A stretch of DNA of 64,000 bases from Deltaproteobacteria bacterium (GTDB taxonomy: Bacteria > Desulfobacterota > Desulfobaccia > Desulfobaccales > 0-14-0-80-60-11). A program made the position numbers and the translations under genes. Below are positions 17,369 through 28,434 of the stretch, piece after piece. The DNA lies in NCBI GenBank assembly GCA_030018495.1, contig JASEFS010000019.1:7664-71663 (forward strand). The letters are read 5' to 3'. Every line of letters begins with the position of its first letter. Within the stretch, counting starts at the first letter, position 1. The notes beneath the pieces were generated by a model, which saw nothing but the letters and a program-made list of their open reading frames with translations, was not told where the DNA came from and did not search any database.

Positions 17369-19933
17369 ATGTTTAAATTTCTGCGCCGGTTTTTGAGAGA
17401 AGAGCAAGACCCTCAGGTTCTGTTGCGGGAGAAGTTTCACCATTTTCGCATCCTTCTGGAAAGCAACAACCAGGTCCTCAGCCTCATGGCGGACATGGAG
17501 GAGAAGGCCTCCGGCGACTACCTCTTCGACGCCGGTTATTTAAAGAGCCGGGTGGGCCAATTGGGCACCCAAGTGGCCCGCATCATCCAGGAACTCGGTC
17601 ATCTCACCGACAACCGCTACCCGGAGCTGGTCCCCATCCATCAGGAAATCCTGGCCGCCATCCTGGCCGAATTAGCTGCGACCCGGGAAATTCCTGCTAC
17701 CCCGTGGGTGCTGCCGTTGGCACAATTGGCCAAAGAGTCGGCTCCTGCGGTCGGCGCCAAGATGGCCAATCTGGGGGAAATTCAAAACCGCTTGGGGATT
17801 CGGGTGCCCCGAGGTTTCGCGGTGACCGCCGCGGCCTACCGGCATTTTCTGGAGGAATCCGGCCTGACCGCGCTCCTGGAGGAACGTTTGGACCAGGCGC
17901 GCATCGACGACTTGGAGTCCCTGGAGCAGATCAGCCGGGAAGTGCAGGAACTGGTGCGCCGGGCGCCGCTGCCGCCGGACCTGGAGGAGGCCCTCCGCCA
18001 GGCCGCGGCCACACTGGCCGGAGGCCGGCTGGCCGTGCGGTCCAGCGCGGTGGGCGAAGACACGGATTATTCCTTTGCCGGCCAGTTCCACACCCTGCTG
18101 AATGTGGACGCCGCGGACCTGCCGGTTCATTACAAGGAAGTGGTGGCCAGCAAGTTCCGGCCCCGGGCCGTATATTACTGGAAATATCGGCAGTTCTCCT
18201 TGGGCGAGGTGCCCATGGCGGTGGGCTGCCTGGTTATGGTGCCGGCCCGGGTCAGCGGCATTATGTTCAGCCGCGACCCCCACGCACCGGAGGCGGACGT
18301 CGTGATCGTCAACGCGGTCTGGGGATTGGGGAAGTACGCGGTGGACGGCACCATCACCCCGGATTTTTATAAGGTGGCCCGGAGCAAGCCGTTCGGCGTC
18401 TTGGAGCAGCGGGTAGTCGTCAAGCCGGTGGCTTTGATTTGTGAAGCTGCCGGCGGGTGCCGCTCGGCAACGATGCCCCCCGAACAGGCGGCGTCCGCCT
18501 GCCTCACGCCGGCGCAGCTTGAGGCCCTGGCTGAGATCGCGGTGAATCTGGAGGCTCATTTCGGGCGGCCCCAGGACATTGAGTGGGCCATCGACGAGCA
18601 GGGCGAAATCATTATCCTGCAAACCCGCCCCCTGCGCGTCAGCGCCCCGGCCTTCGGCGAGGCTGGCCGGGAGCCGGTTTTGGAGCTGCCGCCGCCTCTA
18701 TTAAGCTGCGGCATCCGGGCCTCCGGCGGTGCGGCCGCAGGTCCGGTCTTTCACTTGGAGACTGAGGAAGACATCAAAGATATCCCGCCGGGGGCCGTGG
18801 TGGTGGCGCGTCAATCCAGCGCCCGCCTCGTCCTGGTCATGGACAAGATCAGCGCCATCGTCACCGAAATCGGCGGGCCCACGGACCACATGTCCATTCT
18901 GGCCCGGGAGTTCAAAGTGCCGGCTTTGGCGGAGGTCAAGGGCGCCATGCAAACCCTGAAGCCCGGCCTGGTGGTGACCGTGGACGCCGATACCGCCGAA
19001 ATTTATCCGGGTGTGGTGCGTGACCTGTTGGAGCGCCGCCAACGAACCGACAAGATCATGCAGGACCATCCGGATCTGCAAAAGCTGACCGCAATCCTCA
19101 AAAAGACCGTCCCGCTTAACCTGGTGGACCCGAGCAGCCCCGAATTTCAGGCGAAAAACTGCCGCACCTTCCACGACATCACCCGGTTCAGCCACGAAAA
19201 GGCTATGGACGCCATGTTCTTTCTGGACGTGGAAGAAGCCGTGACCGCGGGCGGCGTTTGCCGCTTGAAGACGGAATTGCCCCTCAACATCTTCATTCTC
19301 GACCTGGGCGGCGGTTTGAGAGTGAGCGGTCAGGCTGCCGTAACCGAGGACGATATTTCCTCCCGGCCATTCCGGGCGCTCCTCCGGGGCTTTCACCACC
19401 CTGAGGTGCGCTGGGCCGGCCAGGTGGCCCCGGACCTCAAAGGCTTCATCTCGGTCTGGGCCAACACCATGTACGATATGGCCAAGCACGAGCGGGGTCT
19501 GGGCGGGAAAAGCTTCGCCATCATCACGGAGAACTACCTCAATTTCAACTCCCGCCTGGGCTACCATTTCGGCTTGGTGGACGCTTATCTTTCCGAGGAA
19601 CGCAACGACAACTATATCAGCTTCCAGTTCAAGGGCGGGGCGGCCAGCGTGGACCGCCGGGAGCGCCGGGCCCGGCTGCTGGAGAAAATCCTCAGCAGCC
19701 TGGGTTTCAAGGTCCAGATCACCGGCGACCTGGTCCAGGGACGTCTGGCCAAGTACTCGGCCGCGGACAGCGAAGAGATGCTGGAGATGACCGGGCTGGT
19801 CATGGCCTTTGCCCGGCAGTTGGACCTGGCTTTGTCTTCCGAAGCCGTGGTCGACCGCTGCCTGGCAGCCTTTAAGGCCAAGGATTACGGGTTAAGCTGC
19901 CTGCGCCCTGATGATGCGGCTCGTGGTAACTAA
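17369..19933 (+). CDS. PEP synthase-like dikinase, paralog 3
   Basis: GAKMANLGE, VRSSAVGED..FAGQF, PQDIEWA, GGPTDHMSILARE, NFNSRLGYH. Confidence 0.9.
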   Translation: MFKFLRRFLREEQDPQVLLREKFHHFRILLESNNQVLSLMADMEEKASGDYLFDAGYLKSRVGQLGTQVARIIQELGHLTDNRYPELVPIHQEILAAILAELAATREIPATPWVLPLAQLAKESAPAVGAKMANLGEIQNRLGIRVPRGFAVTAAAYRHFLEESGLTALLEERLDQARIDDLESLEQISREVQELVRRAPLPPDLEEALRQAAATLAGGRLAVRSSAVGEDTDYSFAGQFHTLLNVDAADLPVHYKEVVASKFRPRAVYYWKYRQFSLGEVPMAVGCLVMVPARVSGIMFSRDPHAPEADVVIVNAVWGLGKYAVDGTITPDFYKVARSKPFGVLEQRVVVKPVALICEAAGGCRSATMPPEQAASACLTPAQLEALAEIAVNLEAHFGRPQDIEWAIDEQGEIIILQTRPLRVSAPAFGEAGREPVLELPPPLLSCGIRASGGAAAGPVFHLETEEDIKDIPPGAVVVARQSSARLVLVMDKISAIVTEIGGPTDHMSILAREFKVPALAEVKGAMQTLKPGLVVTVDADTAEIYPGVVRDLLERRQRTDKIMQDHPDLQKLTAILKKTVPLNLVDPSSPEFQAKNCRTFHDITRFSHEKAMDAMFFLDVEEAVTAGGVCRLKTELPLNIFILDLGGGLRVSGQAAVTEDDISSRPFRALLRGFHHPEVRWAGQVAPDLKGFISVWANTMYDMAKHERGLGGKSFAIITENYLNFNSRLGYHFGLVDAYLSEERNDNYISFQFKGGAASVDRRERRARLLEKILSSLGFKVQITGDLVQGRLAKYSAADSEEMLEMTGLVMAFARQLDLALSSEAVVDRCLAAFKAKDYGLSCLRPDDAARGN

Positions 19934-22388: not shown

Positions 22389-23006
22389 TTAAAAAGTCGA
22401 AGCGATTACTTCCACCCGGCCATCCTTCATGTGGTATTTGCTTACCACCAGATGAAGGAGGTTGCGGGCCAGGGCCTCGTCAATGATGCTGCTTTCCCGC
22501 CGCAAGGTTTCTTGCAGGGACGCGATGAACTCAATGGTGGCCGTTTCCACCAGGTCGCGGCCGGTCTTGCCGGTAGCTCGCACCCGGTTCGCCGCCGGGG
22601 CGATCTGGCGCACAATCGCGGAAATATGGCCTTCGTCAAGGTCGGGATGCTCCACGGCTGCGGTCACCGCGCCGCAGCATTCGTGTCCCTTGATTACCAG
22701 CAGAGGCACATGCAGATGGGCTACCGCGTATTCCAGACTGCCGATGGTGGTGGGATCCAGGGTCAAGCCGGCGCTCCGCACCACAAACAGGTCACCCAGG
22801 CTCTGGTCAAAGATGATTTCGGCCGGCACCCGGGAATCGGAGCAGCACAGGACCGCTGCCATGGGCTTTTGTCCTCTGTGCAGACTGCGCCTTAGATCCA
22901 GAAGGTTCCGTCCCATGAAAAAACCCTGGGCAAAGCGCATGTTACCTTCGATAAGCCTTTGCCAAACCTGCTTTCCCTCCAAGGTCTGATTGATGGCGTG
23001 AGACAT
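22389..23006 (-). CDS. Beta-class carbonic anhydrase
   Basis: CSDSRVP, GDLFVVR.AG, GSLEYA, GHECCGAV zinc ligands; AGGAG RBS before ATG 23006. Confidence 0.93.
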   Translation of the reverse strand: MSHAINQTLEGKQVWQRLIEGNMRFAQGFFMGRNLLDLRRSLHRGQKPMAAVLCCSDSRVPAEIIFDQSLGDLFVVRSAGLTLDPTTIGSLEYAVAHLHVPLLVIKGHECCGAVTAAVEHPDLDEGHISAIVRQIAPAANRVRATGKTGRDLVETATIEFIASLQETLRRESSIIDEALARNLLHLVVSKYHMKDGRVEVIASTF

Positions 23007-23117
23007 GTTTATAAACTCCTGCACCAGGGGAAGGGTGAAAGTTCATAGGGTAATTGCCAGCAGGCTTTAGCCTTGATCTGGCGAACGCGGCAAGTGCGGC
23101 TTGCACGAAGCCGAAGC

Positions 23118-23189
23118 TTACTTTCAGCAGCCTCCGGTGGCGATCACGAGGACCACCACGGCAAGCAGGATCAGAAATATCCACATCAT
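23118..23189 (-). CDS. Candidate 23-aa single-TM selenopeptide MMWIFLILLAVVVLVIATGGC(U)K (21 aa if UGA is a stop)
   Basis: AAGGA RBS just after the RR stop; hydrophobic helix; GGA GGC TGC TGA AAG TAA; SECIS-like hairpin downstream. Confidence 0.55.
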
Positions 23190-23205
23190 TGTCGGGTTCC
23201 TTCGG

Positions 23206-23625
23206 TTACGGAGTGGTGGCTTCCAACCTTTTTTTCAGCTCCTTGTTCTGGCGCACCATCTCCCGCCAGCGCATGGCCTTGTCGATGGCCAGCAGGATCT
23301 GCTCTTTGCGGAAAGGCTTGGTGATGAAGTCGAAAGCCCCTTTAGCCATGGCTTCTTCAGCCGACTCCAGGGAGCCGTAGGCGGTAATCACCATGACCAA
23401 CAGGTCTTCATCTTTTTTCTTGGCCGCCTCCAGGAGCTCCATGCCGTCCATGCCGGGCATCTTGAGATCGGTGAGAACCAGGTCAAACTGCTCCTTGTCC
23501 AGCAGCTCCGAGGCTTCCATGGGGTTGTTGGTGATCGATACCTGGTGGTCGGTGTAGCCTTCCACCATCATCTTAAGCAGGGTCAACATATCGAGTTCGT
23601 CGTCAACAGCCAGAATACGTCCCAT
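23206..23625 (-). CDS. Stand-alone response regulator
   Basis: ILAVDDE, TDLKMP, ITAYG, ITKPF; paralog of 16921-17331. Confidence 0.93.
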   Translation of the reverse strand: MGRILAVDDELDMLTLLKMMVEGYTDHQVSITNNPMEASELLDKEQFDLVLTDLKMPGMDGMELLEAAKKKDEDLLVMVITAYGSLESAEEAMAKGAFDFITKPFRKEQILLAIDKAMRWREMVRQNKELKKRLEATTP

Positions 23626-23640
23626 GCTTGCAGGACCTCC

Positions 23641-25902
23641 TCAATTGGCAGCTCGCCGGCCGCTGGCCGCGGCCGGGATTTCAGTTGCCGGCGGCAGAGA
23701 CACAAAAAAAGAGGTGCCGCTTTCGCCGGGGGCCTCTTTTTTCGTGCGGGTTTCGAAACGGATGCGGCCGCCGCATTTCTCAATGATGGCGTAACTCACG
23801 GAAAGGCCCAAACCAGTGCCTTCGCCCACCTTTTTGGTGGTGAAAAAAGGATCAAAAATCCGGTCCACATACTCTTTAGGAATACCTGTGCCGGTGTCGG
23901 CAACCATGGCCTCCACCATGCGGGTATCCGGATTGATGCGGGTGCTGATGGTAAGTTTGCCGCCGTCGGGCATGGCGGCGATGGCGTTGGTGATGAGATT
24001 CAGGAAAACTTGTTGCATTTCTCCCGCATCGCCTCTCACCTTGGGGAGTCCGGGGGTCAGGCGCAGGTCCAAGTCAATTTTTTTGGTCAACAAGGTGTTT
24101 TGCACCAACTTGAGAACGTTTTCCATTTCCTGATTCAGGTCGCAGAATTCATCATGCCGGGTAGGCTGGCGGGCAAAGGTCATCAGGTTTTCCACGATGC
24201 GCTTGCAGTTGAGGCCCTGCCGCTCGATGGTCTTCAACATTTCATATTCTTTGCTGTCCGGAGGAGTGCGGTCCAGGAGCATCTCGGTGAAGCCCAGCAT
24301 GATGCCCACCGGGTTATTGATTTCATGGGCCACACCCGCAGCCAGGGTGCCGATGGAGGCAAGCTTTTCCGTGCGCACCATTTGCTGTTCCATGCGCTGG
24401 CGCTCGGTCATATCCCGGGCGAATACCAGCACCCGCTCCACGGCGCGGCCGTCTTCCCCGTAAAGGGGGACCATATGGGTGGAGAGCCAATAGGTCCGTC
24501 CCCGTATGCGCACTTCGCCCCGGCTTTCGTGATTTCTGCCCGTGGTGACTACATAATTGACATTGTTAAGCATGGCCTCGGCGTCCTCGGGAGCCAGGAA
24601 ATCCATAATGGATCTACCCCGAAGGGCTTGGGCCGGCATGTTGAAAGCTCGGGCCGCGGCGGTGTTGGCCCGCATGATCCGCCCCTGATTGTCCAACAGC
24701 AGAATAAAATCCGGGGAGCGCTCCACCACGGAACGGTACCGCTCCTCGCTGCGCTTGAGGTCCACGGTGGCCTTGTCCACGGCTTTCTGCAGCTCGTCCG
24801 TCCAGCGCCGCTCGTAATAAATAATGGCCATCCCCATGAGCAGCAGGGCGAAGATGAGCAAGCCCTGAATCAGGAACTGGCGAATGTATAAGGAAGAGAT
24901 GGTGCCTGCCACCTCATCGGTGGGGGCCACCACCGCCACCGGCCAGATCCTTACATTCGGCAGGTCTTCATGATGAAGGTCCCGGGGGCCTTGCTGTTCT
25001 ACATGAGCGTGGCTGTAAGCCAGAAATTTTTCCATGCGCTGGATGACTCCCCGGTGCCATCCCGAATAGTATCTGGCCGTGCCCTCATACCCGGCAAGCA
25101 TGCGGGTTTTCTGGATTTCATTAATCTTATCAAAGCTGATGGCCGGGTTGCGCTTGCCCCGGGCGGTGAAGGCGTCCTCGCCGATAAATTCCCGTTCCGG
25201 GTGGTAGAGAAAAATGCCCTGCTGATTGATGATCCAACAGTACCCGCTCCGGCCGGAGCGGATTTCCCGGGCATAGTGGCCGGTAAAGGCGCTGACGTCC
25301 ACCTTGAAAAAGAGCACGCCGTCAAACCCGCCGGGAGGCTTGGGATGCGATTCGTCCACGCTCTCCAGATATATCGGCGTAGCGATGGTCATAAAAGGAA
25401 TTTTAACTGTGCCCTTGGGTTCAACCTGTATCTTTGACTGATATATCTGGCCCTTATTGACAGGGTTATGGGCCCAGACAACTTCGGGCATTTGAGAGAA
25501 GCTCTCATCTGTATACACATGGGGCCCGCTGGCATCCAAAAGGTAAGCCACATGACCATCGTGGCGGATGCGGACGATGGCGGTCACGCCCAGGCGGGAG
25601 AGCTCGCCGAAGCTGACCTGCATGCGGTTGGACCAAGCCACTTCCTCCAAATACTGAACGGCAGGAGAATAGGCGAGAATCTTCAGCTCCCGGCGCAGAA
25701 AAGCCAGGCCGTCCTCGATTTGCCGGGCCGCGGTCCGGGCCAGGATAAGCTGCTGCTGCTGAAAGTCGTCGGCTACAATGTCCTGGGTGCGCTTCAGCGA
25801 CCAAAAGCCCAGGATAAAGGCCACCGCTAACAGGACCACCACCAGGAGCCCCAGAAGCTTGATGACCCGGTTGAAGCCGATTTTTTCAATAGGGTTGATC
25901 AT
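23641..25902 (-). CDS. Membrane sensor histidine kinase (Cache-PAS-HisKA-HATPase)
   Basis: Paralog of 14589-16898 ([36 protein letters not shown]). Confidence 0.95.
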
Positions 25903-25908
25903 ATTATT

Positions 25909-28434
25909 TCAAATATTCAAATTATATCCTGATGTGATGAATTCGTGATAATACTGCTCGACCATGGCGTCGTCCTGCATGGTTACGTCCAGTTGTTTGC
26001 TCACCATGATCAGGCGCCCCAGCACCTCCAGCTTCTCCTCCAGGACGTGAACCGGAAAACCGTCCAGGCGGGCCGTGATGGAATCGCCCTTGAGCTCCAC
26101 CCGGAAGTCCAGGTGCTGCAGTACCTTGGCCAGAAAAAGCACCCGCCGCGCCCGCCGGGTAAGGTCAGCCCCTCCCCCATAAAACACCAGGGTGACGTAG
26201 CTTTCCTCCGGCGCGCCCAGGTACGCGTCGATGGTGGTGAAGTGGTAGCCCAAACGGCTGGAGAAATTCATATAATCCCGGGCGATGATGGCGAAGTTGT
26301 CTTCCTGGAGGCGGTCCTGGGCGCCGGCGTCCGAGGCCGCACCCATGACCACGGAAATGAAGCTGGTCAAATCCAGGGGCTTGGGACCCTTCCAGCCGAT
26401 GGCCGCCACCCCTCGCCAATACGCCAGCATGGGCCGGGAGCGCAGGTCTTCGGGAGTGATGATGGGGGATTCCCGGGCTTCGGGCCTCAGGCCGCCGCCC
26501 ACATCTATGACATAAATCTCCAGCGGCAAATCGCTCTGCAAGCTCCGGGCGTACTCCCTGGACATCGCTCCCCGGGAGACCTTGAAAAGCTCGGTCATGG
26601 CCTTTTCATGGGCAAAGCGGGTGATGTCGTGATAGGTCTCACAGGCCTCGGGGCGGAAGCGCTCGCTTCTGGGATCCAGGAGGTTGAGAGGAGTAATGTG
26701 CTTTAAGGCCCGCTCCAGGGTCCGCCAGGCACGGCTCTGGTGCAGAATGGCGTCCTCCGGGGGCGCCACGAGAAGTTCTTCCTGCCGCCCGGCGTAGACG
26801 TTGCCGTAATAGGCGTCAACGGTCACCAGGTCCCCCTGGTGCAGGCGGCTGGCCGCGTCTTTGGCCCCGAACAGGGCGGGCACGCCCGCCTCCCGGAGGA
26901 CCGTGGCCAGGTGCGTGGTGGCGCTCCCCATCTCGCAGATGACCGCGGCCACCCGGCCCACAGCCAGGCCGTATTCCGGCAGGGCTTGGCGGATCACCAG
27001 CACCGACCCCGCAGGGATTTCCTGGATGTCCTGGTCCCGAAGGATGTGCACCGGGCCGGCCCCGGCCCCCCGGGAGGCGATGACGCCGTTCTCCAGGAGT
27101 ACCGGAACACCCTTGAGCCGCGGCGGCACGTAGCCGGCCTTGGCTTTGCGGCTCAGACGCAAGGGGCGGGCCTGGAGGATGACCAATTTGCCAGCCTGGT
27201 CCAGGGCCCATTCAATATCCTGGGGGACGCCGAAGTGCCGGGCCACGGCTTCGGCAACGCGGGCCAGCTCCATTGCCTGCTCCGGCGTCAGGCAAGGGCC
27301 GGCAAGCTCAGCAACGGCGTATTCCTCAAGGATGCCGCCGGTCGGCGCCAAGCGGTGTATCCGGGTCTTGGCCCCGATATCCTGGGAGACCAGGCGGCCT
27401 TTCTCCACCCGGTAGACGTCGGGTTCGGCCTGTCCGCCCACCGCGGTGGAGCCCAAGCCCCACACCGCGTTGATGATGACAACATCCTCACCCGTGCGGG
27501 GATCGGCAGTATAGAGCACCCCGGCGGCCCTGGCGTTCACCATTTCCATGACGAGCACGCCCATGGCCAGCTCCTGGTATGAATAGCCGCTGGCATGGCA
27601 ATAGTAGAGGGCCTGGGGGGTGAACTGGCTGGCAATGACCTGCTTGTAACGCTCCGCCACCATATCCGCAGGAACGTTCAGGATGCTTTCGAACTGTCCG
27701 GCAAAACTGATGAGGCCGTCTTCCTGGAGTGCGGAGCTGCGCACGGACACCCGGTCAACCCCCAGACGATCCATTTCCTGCGCCAGAGCTTCCGCAAGCG
27801 CCTGGGGCAGCGGGCTGGCCAGAAGGCGCCGCTTGATGGCTTCCCCGGCCTGCCGCAAACTGTCCAGCTGCCGGATGTTGGCCTTGCTGATGGCCTCCCG
27901 GATAAAGGCTTCCAAACCGGCTTCCTCAAAAAACAGTTTTTGGGCATAGGCGCTTACTGCAAAGCCGCGGGGCACCGGAAACCCCTGGCCCAACAACTCT
28001 CCCAGTTTGGCGGCTTTGCCGCCGAAGTAGTGCTGATCAACGGCCTGGCTTAAAGGCAGGGTCAGAGGACCGGGCTTGAGCTCCGGAGTGGCCAGCTCGG
28101 CCTTAAGGCGCGCCGTAATCCTTTGGCGGGCTGCCTCCAAGCCGCGGTAACGTCCTCCGGCCAGAGCGATGAGAGCTTCCACGAGAATCTCCACTTCCCG
28201 GGAAAGCCGGTCGACCGCGCCCCGGACATAGGACATGTCAAACAGATATCCTTCATTGCGCTTGGTCTGGAGATCGGCCAGGATGGCCAGGATGGCGCTG
28301 TTGGCGTGCAGCAGGCGCTTGTAATGGCGATAGCGTTCCAAAAGCGGCGCAGGAGGCCCTGCAGAAATCGGAGGACGGTCCGGCTTCCTTTTTTTTGTGA
28401 GCCATTGTTTTAACTTGTCCAGGGCCTCAGCCAC
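25909..28434 (-). CDS. PEP synthase-like dikinase, paralog 4
   Basis: GGKAAKLGE, VRSSALQED..FAGQF, PQDIEWA, GSATTHLATVLRE, NFSSRLGYH. Confidence 0.9.
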   Translation of the reverse strand: MAEALDKLKQWLTKKRKPDRPPISAGPPAPLLERYRHYKRLLHANSAILAILADLQTKRNEGYLFDMSYVRGAVDRLSREVEILVEALIALAGGRYRGLEAARQRITARLKAELATPELKPGPLTLPLSQAVDQHYFGGKAAKLGELLGQGFPVPRGFAVSAYAQKLFFEEAGLEAFIREAISKANIRQLDSLRQAGEAIKRRLLASPLPQALAEALAQEMDRLGVDRVSVRSSALQEDGLISFAGQFESILNVPADMVAERYKQVIASQFTPQALYYCHASGYSYQELAMGVLVMEMVNARAAGVLYTADPRTGEDVVIINAVWGLGSTAVGGQAEPDVYRVEKGRLVSQDIGAKTRIHRLAPTGGILEEYAVAELAGPCLTPEQAMELARVAEAVARHFGVPQDIEWALDQAGKLVILQARPLRLSRKAKAGYVPPRLKGVPVLLENGVIASRGAGAGPVHILRDQDIQEIPAGSVLVIRQALPEYGLAVGRVAAVICEMGSATTHLATVLREAGVPALFGAKDAASRLHQGDLVTVDAYYGNVYAGRQEELLVAPPEDAILHQSRAWRTLERALKHITPLNLLDPRSERFRPEACETYHDITRFAHEKAMTELFKVSRGAMSREYARSLQSDLPLEIYVIDVGGGLRPEARESPIITPEDLRSRPMLAYWRGVAAIGWKGPKPLDLTSFISVVMGAASDAGAQDRLQEDNFAIIARDYMNFSSRLGYHFTTIDAYLGAPEESYVTLVFYGGGADLTRRARRVLFLAKVLQHLDFRVELKGDSITARLDGFPVHVLEEKLEVLGRLIMVSKQLDVTMQDDAMVEQYYHEFITSGYNLNI

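Follow-up and report, generated by a model that had tools for sequence, protein, structure and literature searches.

The stretch of DNA analysed here (hereafter the window) comprises 64,000 nucleotides from a Desulfobaccales bacterium (Deltaproteobacteria bacterium, assembly GCA_030018495.1, contig JASEFS010000019.1, positions 7,664 to 71,663 of the forward strand), whose genome is 3.46 Mb in 63 contigs and 99.97% complete. Five consecutive minus-strand genes within it encode a phosphoenolpyruvate (PEP)-synthase-like protein, a histidine kinase, a response regulator, a micro-peptide and a carbonic anhydrase (Table 1). The peptide open reading frame (ORF) begins after a 16-nt gap behind the regulator, and is interrupted close to its end by an in-frame UGA, beyond which lies a hairpin of the selenocysteine insertion sequence (SECIS) type. 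From comparison with related genomes, we consider it likely that this ORF is genuine and, though unannotated, encodes a 23-residue selenoprotein, the founding member of a family of peptides of 23–28 residues.

Table 1 Features of the micro-peptide locus, in window coordinates
Feature	Position	Strand	Details
PEP-synthase-like gene	25909–28434	minus	841 aa; PPDK_N + PEP-utilizers; C-terminal ~300 aa unassigned by Pfam
Histidine kinase	23641–25902	minus	dCache_1, PAS, HisKA and HATPase_c domains
Receiver-only response regulator	23206–23625	minus	Pfam Response_reg, 94.8 bits; stop TAA 23208–23206
Shine-Dalgarno-like AAGGA	23198–23202	minus	8 nt ahead of the peptide ATG
Candidate selenopeptide gene	23118–23189	minus	ATG 23189–23187, 21 sense codons, UGA, AAG 23123–23121, TAA 23120–23118
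Hydrophobic helix, residues 3–17 (WIFLILLAVVVLVIA)	23139–23183	minus	predicted single membrane span
Cys and putative selenocysteine codons, TGC-TGA	23124–23129	minus	TGC 23129–23127, TGA 23126–23124
SECIS-type hairpin	23097–23113	minus	stem CGGCUU (23113–23108) with AAGCCG (23102–23097), loop CGUGC (23107–23103); wholly 3′ of the stop codon
Possible lower stem AAGU/ACUU	23092–23123	minus	AAGT 23123–23120 complementary to ACTT 23095–23092; this copy only
β-Carbonic anhydrase	22389–23006	minus	Pfam Pro_CA, 119.8 bits; 112 nt downstream of the peptide gene

Translation from the ATG gives MMWIFLILLAVVVLVIATGGC, followed by the UGA, one Lys codon and TAA; with selenocysteine (Sec, U) at the UGA, the predicted product is the 23-residue MMWIFLILLAVVVLVIATGGC-U-K. 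The mean Kyte–Doolittle hydropathy of the ORF is 2.66. The hairpin loop starts 16 nt from the UGA and has G as its second base, followed by U. Scanning the surroundings of the gene for promoters and terminators gave neither a promoter-like site nor, on the minus strand, a terminator. A contig from the metagenome of a different study is identical over 22990–23159, a segment that spans TGA-AAG-TAA and the hairpin, and so this arrangement is not an assembly slip. Of four DNA sequencing runs compared with the locus, X4 and X1 yielded contigs that match parts of it exactly, X1 being possibly the source sample, and the contigs of X2 and X3 do not reach the peptide; a search of sequencing runs listed no RNA run that contains the locus. 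The locus had been singled out in a sequence-only reading of the window, which proposed a translated, membrane-type micro-ORF with a Sec-decoded UGA and a 3′ SECIS; the sequence features on which it drew (the regulator stop, AAGGA, ATG, TGA, AAG, TAA, hairpin and AAGT/ACTT complement) are all in place.

The host genome has what is needed to decode UGA in this way. Its selA, selB, selC (tRNA-Sec) and selD set is complete, the protein genes scoring 604.4 (selA), 372.7 (selB) and 386.5 bits (selD), each above the curated cut-off, and the tRNA-Sec (anticodon tca) scoring 73.2 bits. The Sec machinery on which the sequence-only reading depended is thus present. In-frame TGA codons occur in selD itself and in two fdhA genes. 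A glutaredoxin-like ORF with one in-frame TGA (G000 contig C4:11016–11213) scores 32 bits against NF041211, for which the cut-off is 100 bits; the genome probably has in it a further selenoprotein gene.

Relatives were sought in 83 genomes of the order, made up of the Desulfobaccales family to which the window genome belongs (f1; 69 genomes including that of the window, 14 genera) and a sister family (f2; 14 genomes), and at phylum level in 151 genomes with a covariance model and 401 with a peptide profile. A DNA search with the regulator-to-anhydrase stretch located the regulator in 29 relatives (77–87% protein identity), nucleotide similarity ending where the regulator ended. When the downstream DNA was read in three frames, 21 of the 29 proved to have this micro-ORF, as M-E-W, a stretch of about 15 hydrophobic residues, [KR]-G-G-C, TGA, GGN, a Lys or Arg codon and a stop. 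The other eight lack the ORF behind the regulator and carry it at another locus.

The covariance model R1, describing the UGA plus hairpin and built from a 21-sequence alignment, was run on the 83 genomes of the order. It gave matches of 28–67 bits in 63 of the 68 f1 relatives and none in the 14 f2 genomes; the peptide profile A2 recovered the same sites and one divergent copy, in G007. The gene is therefore present in 65 of the 69 f1 genomes, the window genome counted, and 64 copies are intact. The remaining copy (G082 contig C31, 111633–111697, minus strand) has a one-base frameshift inside the helix, which may be an assembly indel error and not the mark of a pseudogene; its genome comprises few contigs and is 68% complete. 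Across 146 genomes from other families of the phylum, the model matched twice (23–24.5 bits), both times within ordinary genes. Matches of 20–27 bits (L084, L086 and L087; G215 and G102 outside the family) had no ORF or lay inside ordinary genes and were discarded; all being spurious, they place the noise level at about 27 bits. The profile gave weak matches only in 388 genomes of other families (17 genomes, per-genome E at least 0.002), of which six were inspected. Within the genomes searched, the peptide is limited to one family of uncultured Desulfobaccales, which are relatives of sulfate reducers.

Codon usage around the UGA distinguishes between readings of the ORF. All 64 intact copies have TGA at the putative Sec position, never TAA or TAG. 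It is preceded by Cys in 62 copies (TGC in 55, TGT in 7), by Gly in one and by Leu in one, and is followed by Gly in 60 (GGC 34, GGG 17, GGA 5, GGT 4), Arg in two, Lys in one and Ala in one. The next codon specifies Lys (28 copies), Arg (28 copies, by six different codons), Ser (3) or Gln (3); it is absent from two copies, those with the Lys-only tail of the window and the Arg-only tail of G007. The closing stop is TAA in 31 copies, TGA in 29 and TAG in four, and is never replaced by TGG. Column entropy follows a low-low-high periodicity through the Gly-Gly-Cys codons that precede the UGA and likewise through the Gly codon after it; just past the closing stop it is flat, all three positions lying near 1.85 bits. 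Over the helix, the ratio of non-synonymous to synonymous substitution rates (dN/dS) is about 0.39 (from 98 related, non-independent pairs), and the hydrophobic core is kept in all copies. AGGA/GGAG-type motifs stand at the same distance ahead of the ATG in most of the 64.

These patterns bear on whether the ORF is translated at all. No gene caller would report it, as would be expected of a conserved non-coding RNA or an element in the 3′ untranslated region (UTR) of the regulator operon. We regard that possibility as close to negligible, given an ATG with a suitably spaced ribosome-binding site, three-base periodicity, the dN/dS value and length-preserving evolution; moreover, the ORF and hairpin shift between genomic contexts as a complete unit.

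A second alternative grants translation and takes the TGA as an ordinary stop, leaving a 21-residue membrane peptide that ends in Gly-Gly-Cys, with the hairpin serving as another kind of RNA element, such as one governing processing or stability at the operon 3′ end. Translation table 11 gives this reading by default, and the single-sequence fold of the window, the lack of any Cys-for-Sec orthologue and a second strong downstream hairpin in some copies from genus g9, a possible true terminator, would all fit it. An ordinary stop would, however, drift among TAA, TAG and TGA, as the closing stop and the stops of the regulator genes do. Here the TGA is fixed in every genus while the true stop, nine bases on, drifts, the two codons beyond it are constrained at the amino-acid level with third positions left free, and a second stop follows at a fixed in-frame distance; together these argue that the TGA is not an ordinary stop. 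We judge this alternative improbable, and the more so because the hairpin shares the loop G and spacing of bona fide SECIS elements in the same genome.

The hairpin itself was analysed in a 21-sequence MAFFT alignment (UGA−15 to UGA+45). This yields a 7-bp helix with 96.6% of cells paired and both-sided, compensatory changes at all seven pairs. None of 500 column shuffles reaches any of five covariation measures, pairing falls to 15–54% when the 3′ arm is slid by 1–3 columns, and RNAalifold finds the same helix independently. Variation in the alignment is greatest in the spacer, which bears on the possible lower stem of the window copy. A stem of 6–9 bp, beginning 10–16 nt past the UGA, is present in 64 of 64 copies; G occupies the first loop base in 54 and the second in 10, usually followed by U, and the loop starts 16–23 nt past the UGA (mode 21). 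The range allowed by bSECISearch for this distance is 16–37 nt. In the window genome, the SECIS elements have loops GGU at 20 nt (selD), GUU at 20 nt (fdhA copy 1) and GGUCU at 18 nt (fdhA copy 2) from the UGA, with which the geometry of the peptide hairpin agrees. A search of 22900–23300 against Rfam returned nothing at E ≤ 10.

In the 3′ flanks of most copies no U-tract follows the stem, so that it does not qualify as an intrinsic terminator. In genus g9 (L032, L034, L035 and L037), the SECIS is followed, about 45–70 nt past the UGA, by another strong, GC-rich hairpin, GGCGGACC...GGTCCGCC, a candidate there for the operon's transcription terminator. Since the ORF ends 6–9 nt after the UGA, the SECIS-type hairpin lies in the 3′ UTR. 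Bacterial SECIS elements normally sit inside coding regions, as stated in the 2026 inventory of prokaryotic selenoproteins (PMC13188914).

Taken with the codon evidence, the hairpin makes it very likely, on comparative grounds, that the UGA is decoded as Sec. The checks that accompanied the sequence-only reading gave TGA throughout the orthologues, a hairpin retained with compensatory changes and a frame conserved on both sides of the TGA, all of which support the micro-ORF it proposed.

Several observations pull the other way. Taken alone, the window hairpin is no better than chance, and its significance comes only via conservation in related genomes: the single-sequence minimum-free-energy fold of 23135–23070 does not contain it, and 140 of 200 shuffles are as stable (z = +0.51). 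The window copy is also the least typical in the family, with a 6-bp stem, one codon after the UGA rather than two, the family minimum of 16 nt between UGA and loop, and a covariance-model score of 38 bits, low within the family range. It is nonetheless a family member; the copy in G007 likewise has a one-codon tail, ending C-U-R, and a UGA-to-loop spacing of 17 nt. The genomes are without exception metagenome assemblies from a single family (14 genera), which makes the counts non-independent. Four of the 69 f1 genomes have no copy: G001 (84% complete, from the genus of the window), G002 (99%), G073 (84%) and G085 (92%). We considered whether absence of the peptide tracks absence of Sec and rejected this, as tRNA-Sec was present in all five genomes tested, these four included. 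No family copy has a Cys codon (TGY) at the Sec position; the classical Sec/Cys pairing is therefore missing, and the GGC-TGY variants anticipated by the sequence-only reading did not appear within the family. Finally, two copies have no Cys, ending ...RGGG-U-A-R (G005, L080) and ...RGGL-U-G-R (G030, L083) with TGA and hairpin kept, so a Cys–Sec redox pair cannot be universal. We argue from these same two copies that Sec alone carries the essential function. The G005 and G030 variants are useful natural controls on the role of the Cys.

The gene neighbourhood varies, and offers no consistent functional partner, a further point that weighs against the proposed gene. Upstream of the 64 copies lie the regulator on the same strand (40), a PEP-synthase-like gene (7, the match in G089 being partial) or carbonic anhydrase (1), and in 16 none of the window's genes was matched. 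Downstream are carbonic anhydrase on the same strand (14), convergent Usp or TauE genes (16), or genes unrelated or not identified (34). In genera g4 and g10, the kinase–regulator–carbonic anhydrase block is at a different locus from the peptide, which sits between an orthologue of the 841-aa PEP-synthase-like gene, directly upstream, and convergent Usp/TIGR02186/TauE genes; this layout is the window arrangement minus its signalling block. The neighbours are unrelated in g14, g12 and g7, and with g4, g10 and g5 these make up the genera in which peptide and regulator are uncoupled.

The sequence-only reading had further suggested that the peptide might tune the kinase encoded beside it, a dCache/PAS histidine kinase, in the way that MgrB feeds back on PhoQ. 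This suggestion is favoured by 40 of the 64 copies, in which the peptide gene comes after the response regulator and on its strand, as well as by the 16-nt gap without a promoter-like site in the window and the membrane location of the kinase (dCache_1). The coupling is inconsistent, however: 24 of the 64 copies do not adjoin the regulator, the kinase block of g4 and g10 is elsewhere, and g14, g12 and g7 place the peptide among unrelated genes, so that a MgrB-like role is left without the support it needs. MgrB acts via periplasmic cysteines, whereas the basic tail of the peptide predicts a cytoplasmic Sec. Feedback on the kinase is, in our estimation, unlikely.

The same survey bears on a leader function, in which passage or stalling at the UGA would report the supply of Sec-tRNA and control the downstream gene, the peptide itself being functionless. 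A tiny ORF with a UGA near its end and, in 14 of 64 copies, a co-directional carbonic anhydrase gene behind it, is what such a selenium sensor might look like. The downstream gene is not conserved, however, and amino-acid conservation extends over the hydrophobic helix, the M-E-W start and the G-G-C and G-[KR] residues, for which a pure leader would have no need. We hold this to be highly improbable.

The 841-aa PEP-synthase-like gene of the window has an 854-aa paralogue at 17369–19933 on the plus strand, the two bracketing the locus. Both comprise PPDK_N and a PEP-utilizers swivel domain followed by about 300 residues with no Pfam match, and both score far under the cut-offs for PEP synthase, rifampicin phosphotransferase and PigC. 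A phosphotransferase activity is probable for each. A third paralogue adjoins the kinase block in g4 and g10.

We favour, then, a dedicated selenopeptide. The ribosome would start at ATG 23189 behind AAGGA and make a hydrophobic helix, then Gly-Gly-Cys. At UGA 23126–23124, the hairpin at 23113–23097, beyond the stop codon, would recruit SelB with Sec-tRNA; Sec would be inserted, then Lys, before termination at TAA, most relatives appending Gly-Lys or Gly-Arg in place of the lone Lys. The predicted product is a single-span membrane peptide with a short acidic N terminus (M-E-W) outside and a basic, Gly-rich C-U-G-[KR] tail at the cytoplasmic face, an orientation (N-out, C-in) that follows from the positive-inside rule and the Lys/Arg residues flanking the tail. 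The exposed selenol, usually beside a thiol, could then act at the membrane surface as a redox centre or as a ligand for soft metals or metalloids. For this weakest step of the scheme, we infer that a selenenylsulfide/selenolthiol redox centre, akin to the tail of thioredoxin reductase (TrxR), and a soft-metal or metalloid ligand are about equally likely; dedicated regulation of the neighbouring kinase would be less likely than either. Cys–Sec redox chemistry is plausible given the motif. For the metal-ligand role, a preprint by Haft and Gwadz takes CC and CU motifs to suggest contact with heavy metals.

Known systems supply partial parallels, the nearest motif being the TrxR tail. Animal TrxR ends in a C-terminal redox tail, Gly-Cys-Sec-Gly. 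G-C-U-G, with Gly ahead, also occurs in 58 of the 64 peptide copies (the window having G-C-U-K), suggesting a flexible, exposed pair capable of forming a selenenylsulfide. TrxR differs in being a flavoprotein enzyme; the peptide presents its tail on a membrane helix, adds a basic residue after the Gly and lacks the Cys in two copies. Nor does the peptide fall under the TrxR-type definition, as G-C-U-G does not form its last four residues and it has no pyridine-nucleotide disulfide oxidoreductase domain. The likeness is one of motif only, with no homology.

The nearest functional analogue is selenoprotein K (SELENOK), again by analogy and not homology. SELENOK has a disordered cytosolic segment of about 50 residues, no Cys beside its Sec, a eukaryotic SECIS, and partners at the endoplasmic reticulum in palmitoylation and in endoplasmic-reticulum-associated degradation. 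Selenoprotein S may be likened along with it as a small, single-helix membrane selenoprotein. Like the peptide, SELENOK (94 aa) is small, with one N-terminal hydrophobic helix and its Sec third from the C terminus in a Gly-rich segment; it ends U-G-R, as do half of the bacterial copies. Its helix spans residues 20–42, and the Sec, at residue 92, lies in the segment UGR (bioRxiv 10.1101/2021.05.15.444318). The two have no detectable sequence relationship, and their likeness is presumably convergent.

In size and in its single helix, the peptide resembles small membrane proteins of the MgrB, MgtS, AcrZ and CydX type (20–50 aa), which are missed by gene callers and often encoded at the ends of regulatory operons. 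These tune known larger membrane proteins, however, and to our knowledge none of them contains Sec.

Other small membrane proteins surfaced during the searches. The profile matches in G044, G001, G102, G380, G356 and G110 were rejected as family members on this ground. Those of G356 (51 aa; L231 1477–1629) and G110 (55 aa; L237 1489–1653), from other Desulfobacterota, have a helix-[RK]GG(G)CCG arrangement leading into a tail rich in His, Gly and Lys. In G356, the gene starts 20 nt past a MerR-family regulator and is followed by a YHS/HMBD heavy-metal-binding gene. The two proteins are possible Cys-Cys analogues of the GGCUG peptides and a weak lead towards metals, with per-genome E values of 0.002–0.017 that are not significant over 401 genomes. 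In G044 (family f2), an 82-aa SHOCT-domain membrane protein (L215 627–872) has the helix end FFFSRGGC, identical over eight residues to the selenopeptides of g14, a match that could be fortuitous or could point to where the peptide came from. His/Gly-rich small membrane proteins recur in the phylum (L173 1477–1632 in G001; L233/L234 in G102 and G380), with M-E-x-F-L-R-N-N-W, a helix and then GxGCGxHG..., and no Pfam match.

Among bacterial selenoproteins, the closest in gene layout are the UXX-star (NF041114, NF041211), KCU-star/DUF466 (NF033934) and SaoC (NF040734) families. As in the peptide, their UGA lies 1–3 codons before the true stop, with the SECIS in the 3′ UTR, and KCU-star and SaoC share its vicinal Cys-Sec; UXX-star, KCU-star and Cys-Cys-COOH families are tabulated in PMC13188914. 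With Sec so near the C terminus, the same 3′-UTR arrangement must hold there. These are folded proteins, SaoC being a Cys-Cys-COOH family that averages 158 aa and NF041211 a 71-position glutaredoxin-like model, unlike the present peptides of 23–28 aa, each comprising one membrane helix and a six-residue tail. The best match to NF041211 in the window genome is at contig C4 and not at the peptide; NF041114, NF033934 and NF040734 were covered by whole-library scans.

Those scans, of Pfam and NCBIfam (20.0), returned no family for the peptide or for 33 family members, and no selenoprotein model at E ≤ 10. The sole similarities are weak: TatA-type N-terminal helices (E at least 0.013), and, for one copy each, MgtS and another small-protein model (NCBIfam, E 0.013–0.02, far from cut-offs). 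At 23 residues, the product would be much shorter than any selenoprotein known to us. No micro-peptide of this kind is among the 119 prokaryotic selenoprotein families in the table of the 2026 inventory (PMC13188914), and none was found described in the full-text literature searched, although the supplementary tables of selenoproteome studies might list further families. The comparative evidence strongly supports a new selenoprotein family of an unusual kind. Going further, the peptide could conceivably be the smallest ribosomally made selenoprotein, a membrane-tethered Cys–Sec tail acting as an in-trans relay for redox, selenium or soft metals and a convergent counterpart of selenoprotein K; we put this forward tentatively, as somewhat doubtful.

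Pipelines for selenoprotein discovery take as their starting point called ORFs or likeness to families already known, and the BSepDB pipeline, by its description, applies a 200-nt minimum ORF length when identifying Sec-machinery genes. A 24-residue selenoprotein is invisible to such pipelines, to gene callers and to Pfam and NCBIfam. The family thus indicates that micro-ORFs can conceal selenoproteins and that a covariance model of UGA plus hairpin can detect them, and it would provide a natural case of a bacterial SECIS wholly in the 3′ UTR. The peptide would isolate a reactive G-C-U-G on a minimal membrane anchor; being open to chemical synthesis, it would offer an unusually tractable model for the redox and metal chemistry of Sec at a membrane surface. 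Comparison with selenoprotein K is also of interest, as the two endings are similar and the chemistry of that protein is a matter of debate. If the in-trans relay is true, a separate gene of 23–28 residues would take on in these bacteria the task that in thioredoxin reductase falls to the built-in GCUG tail.

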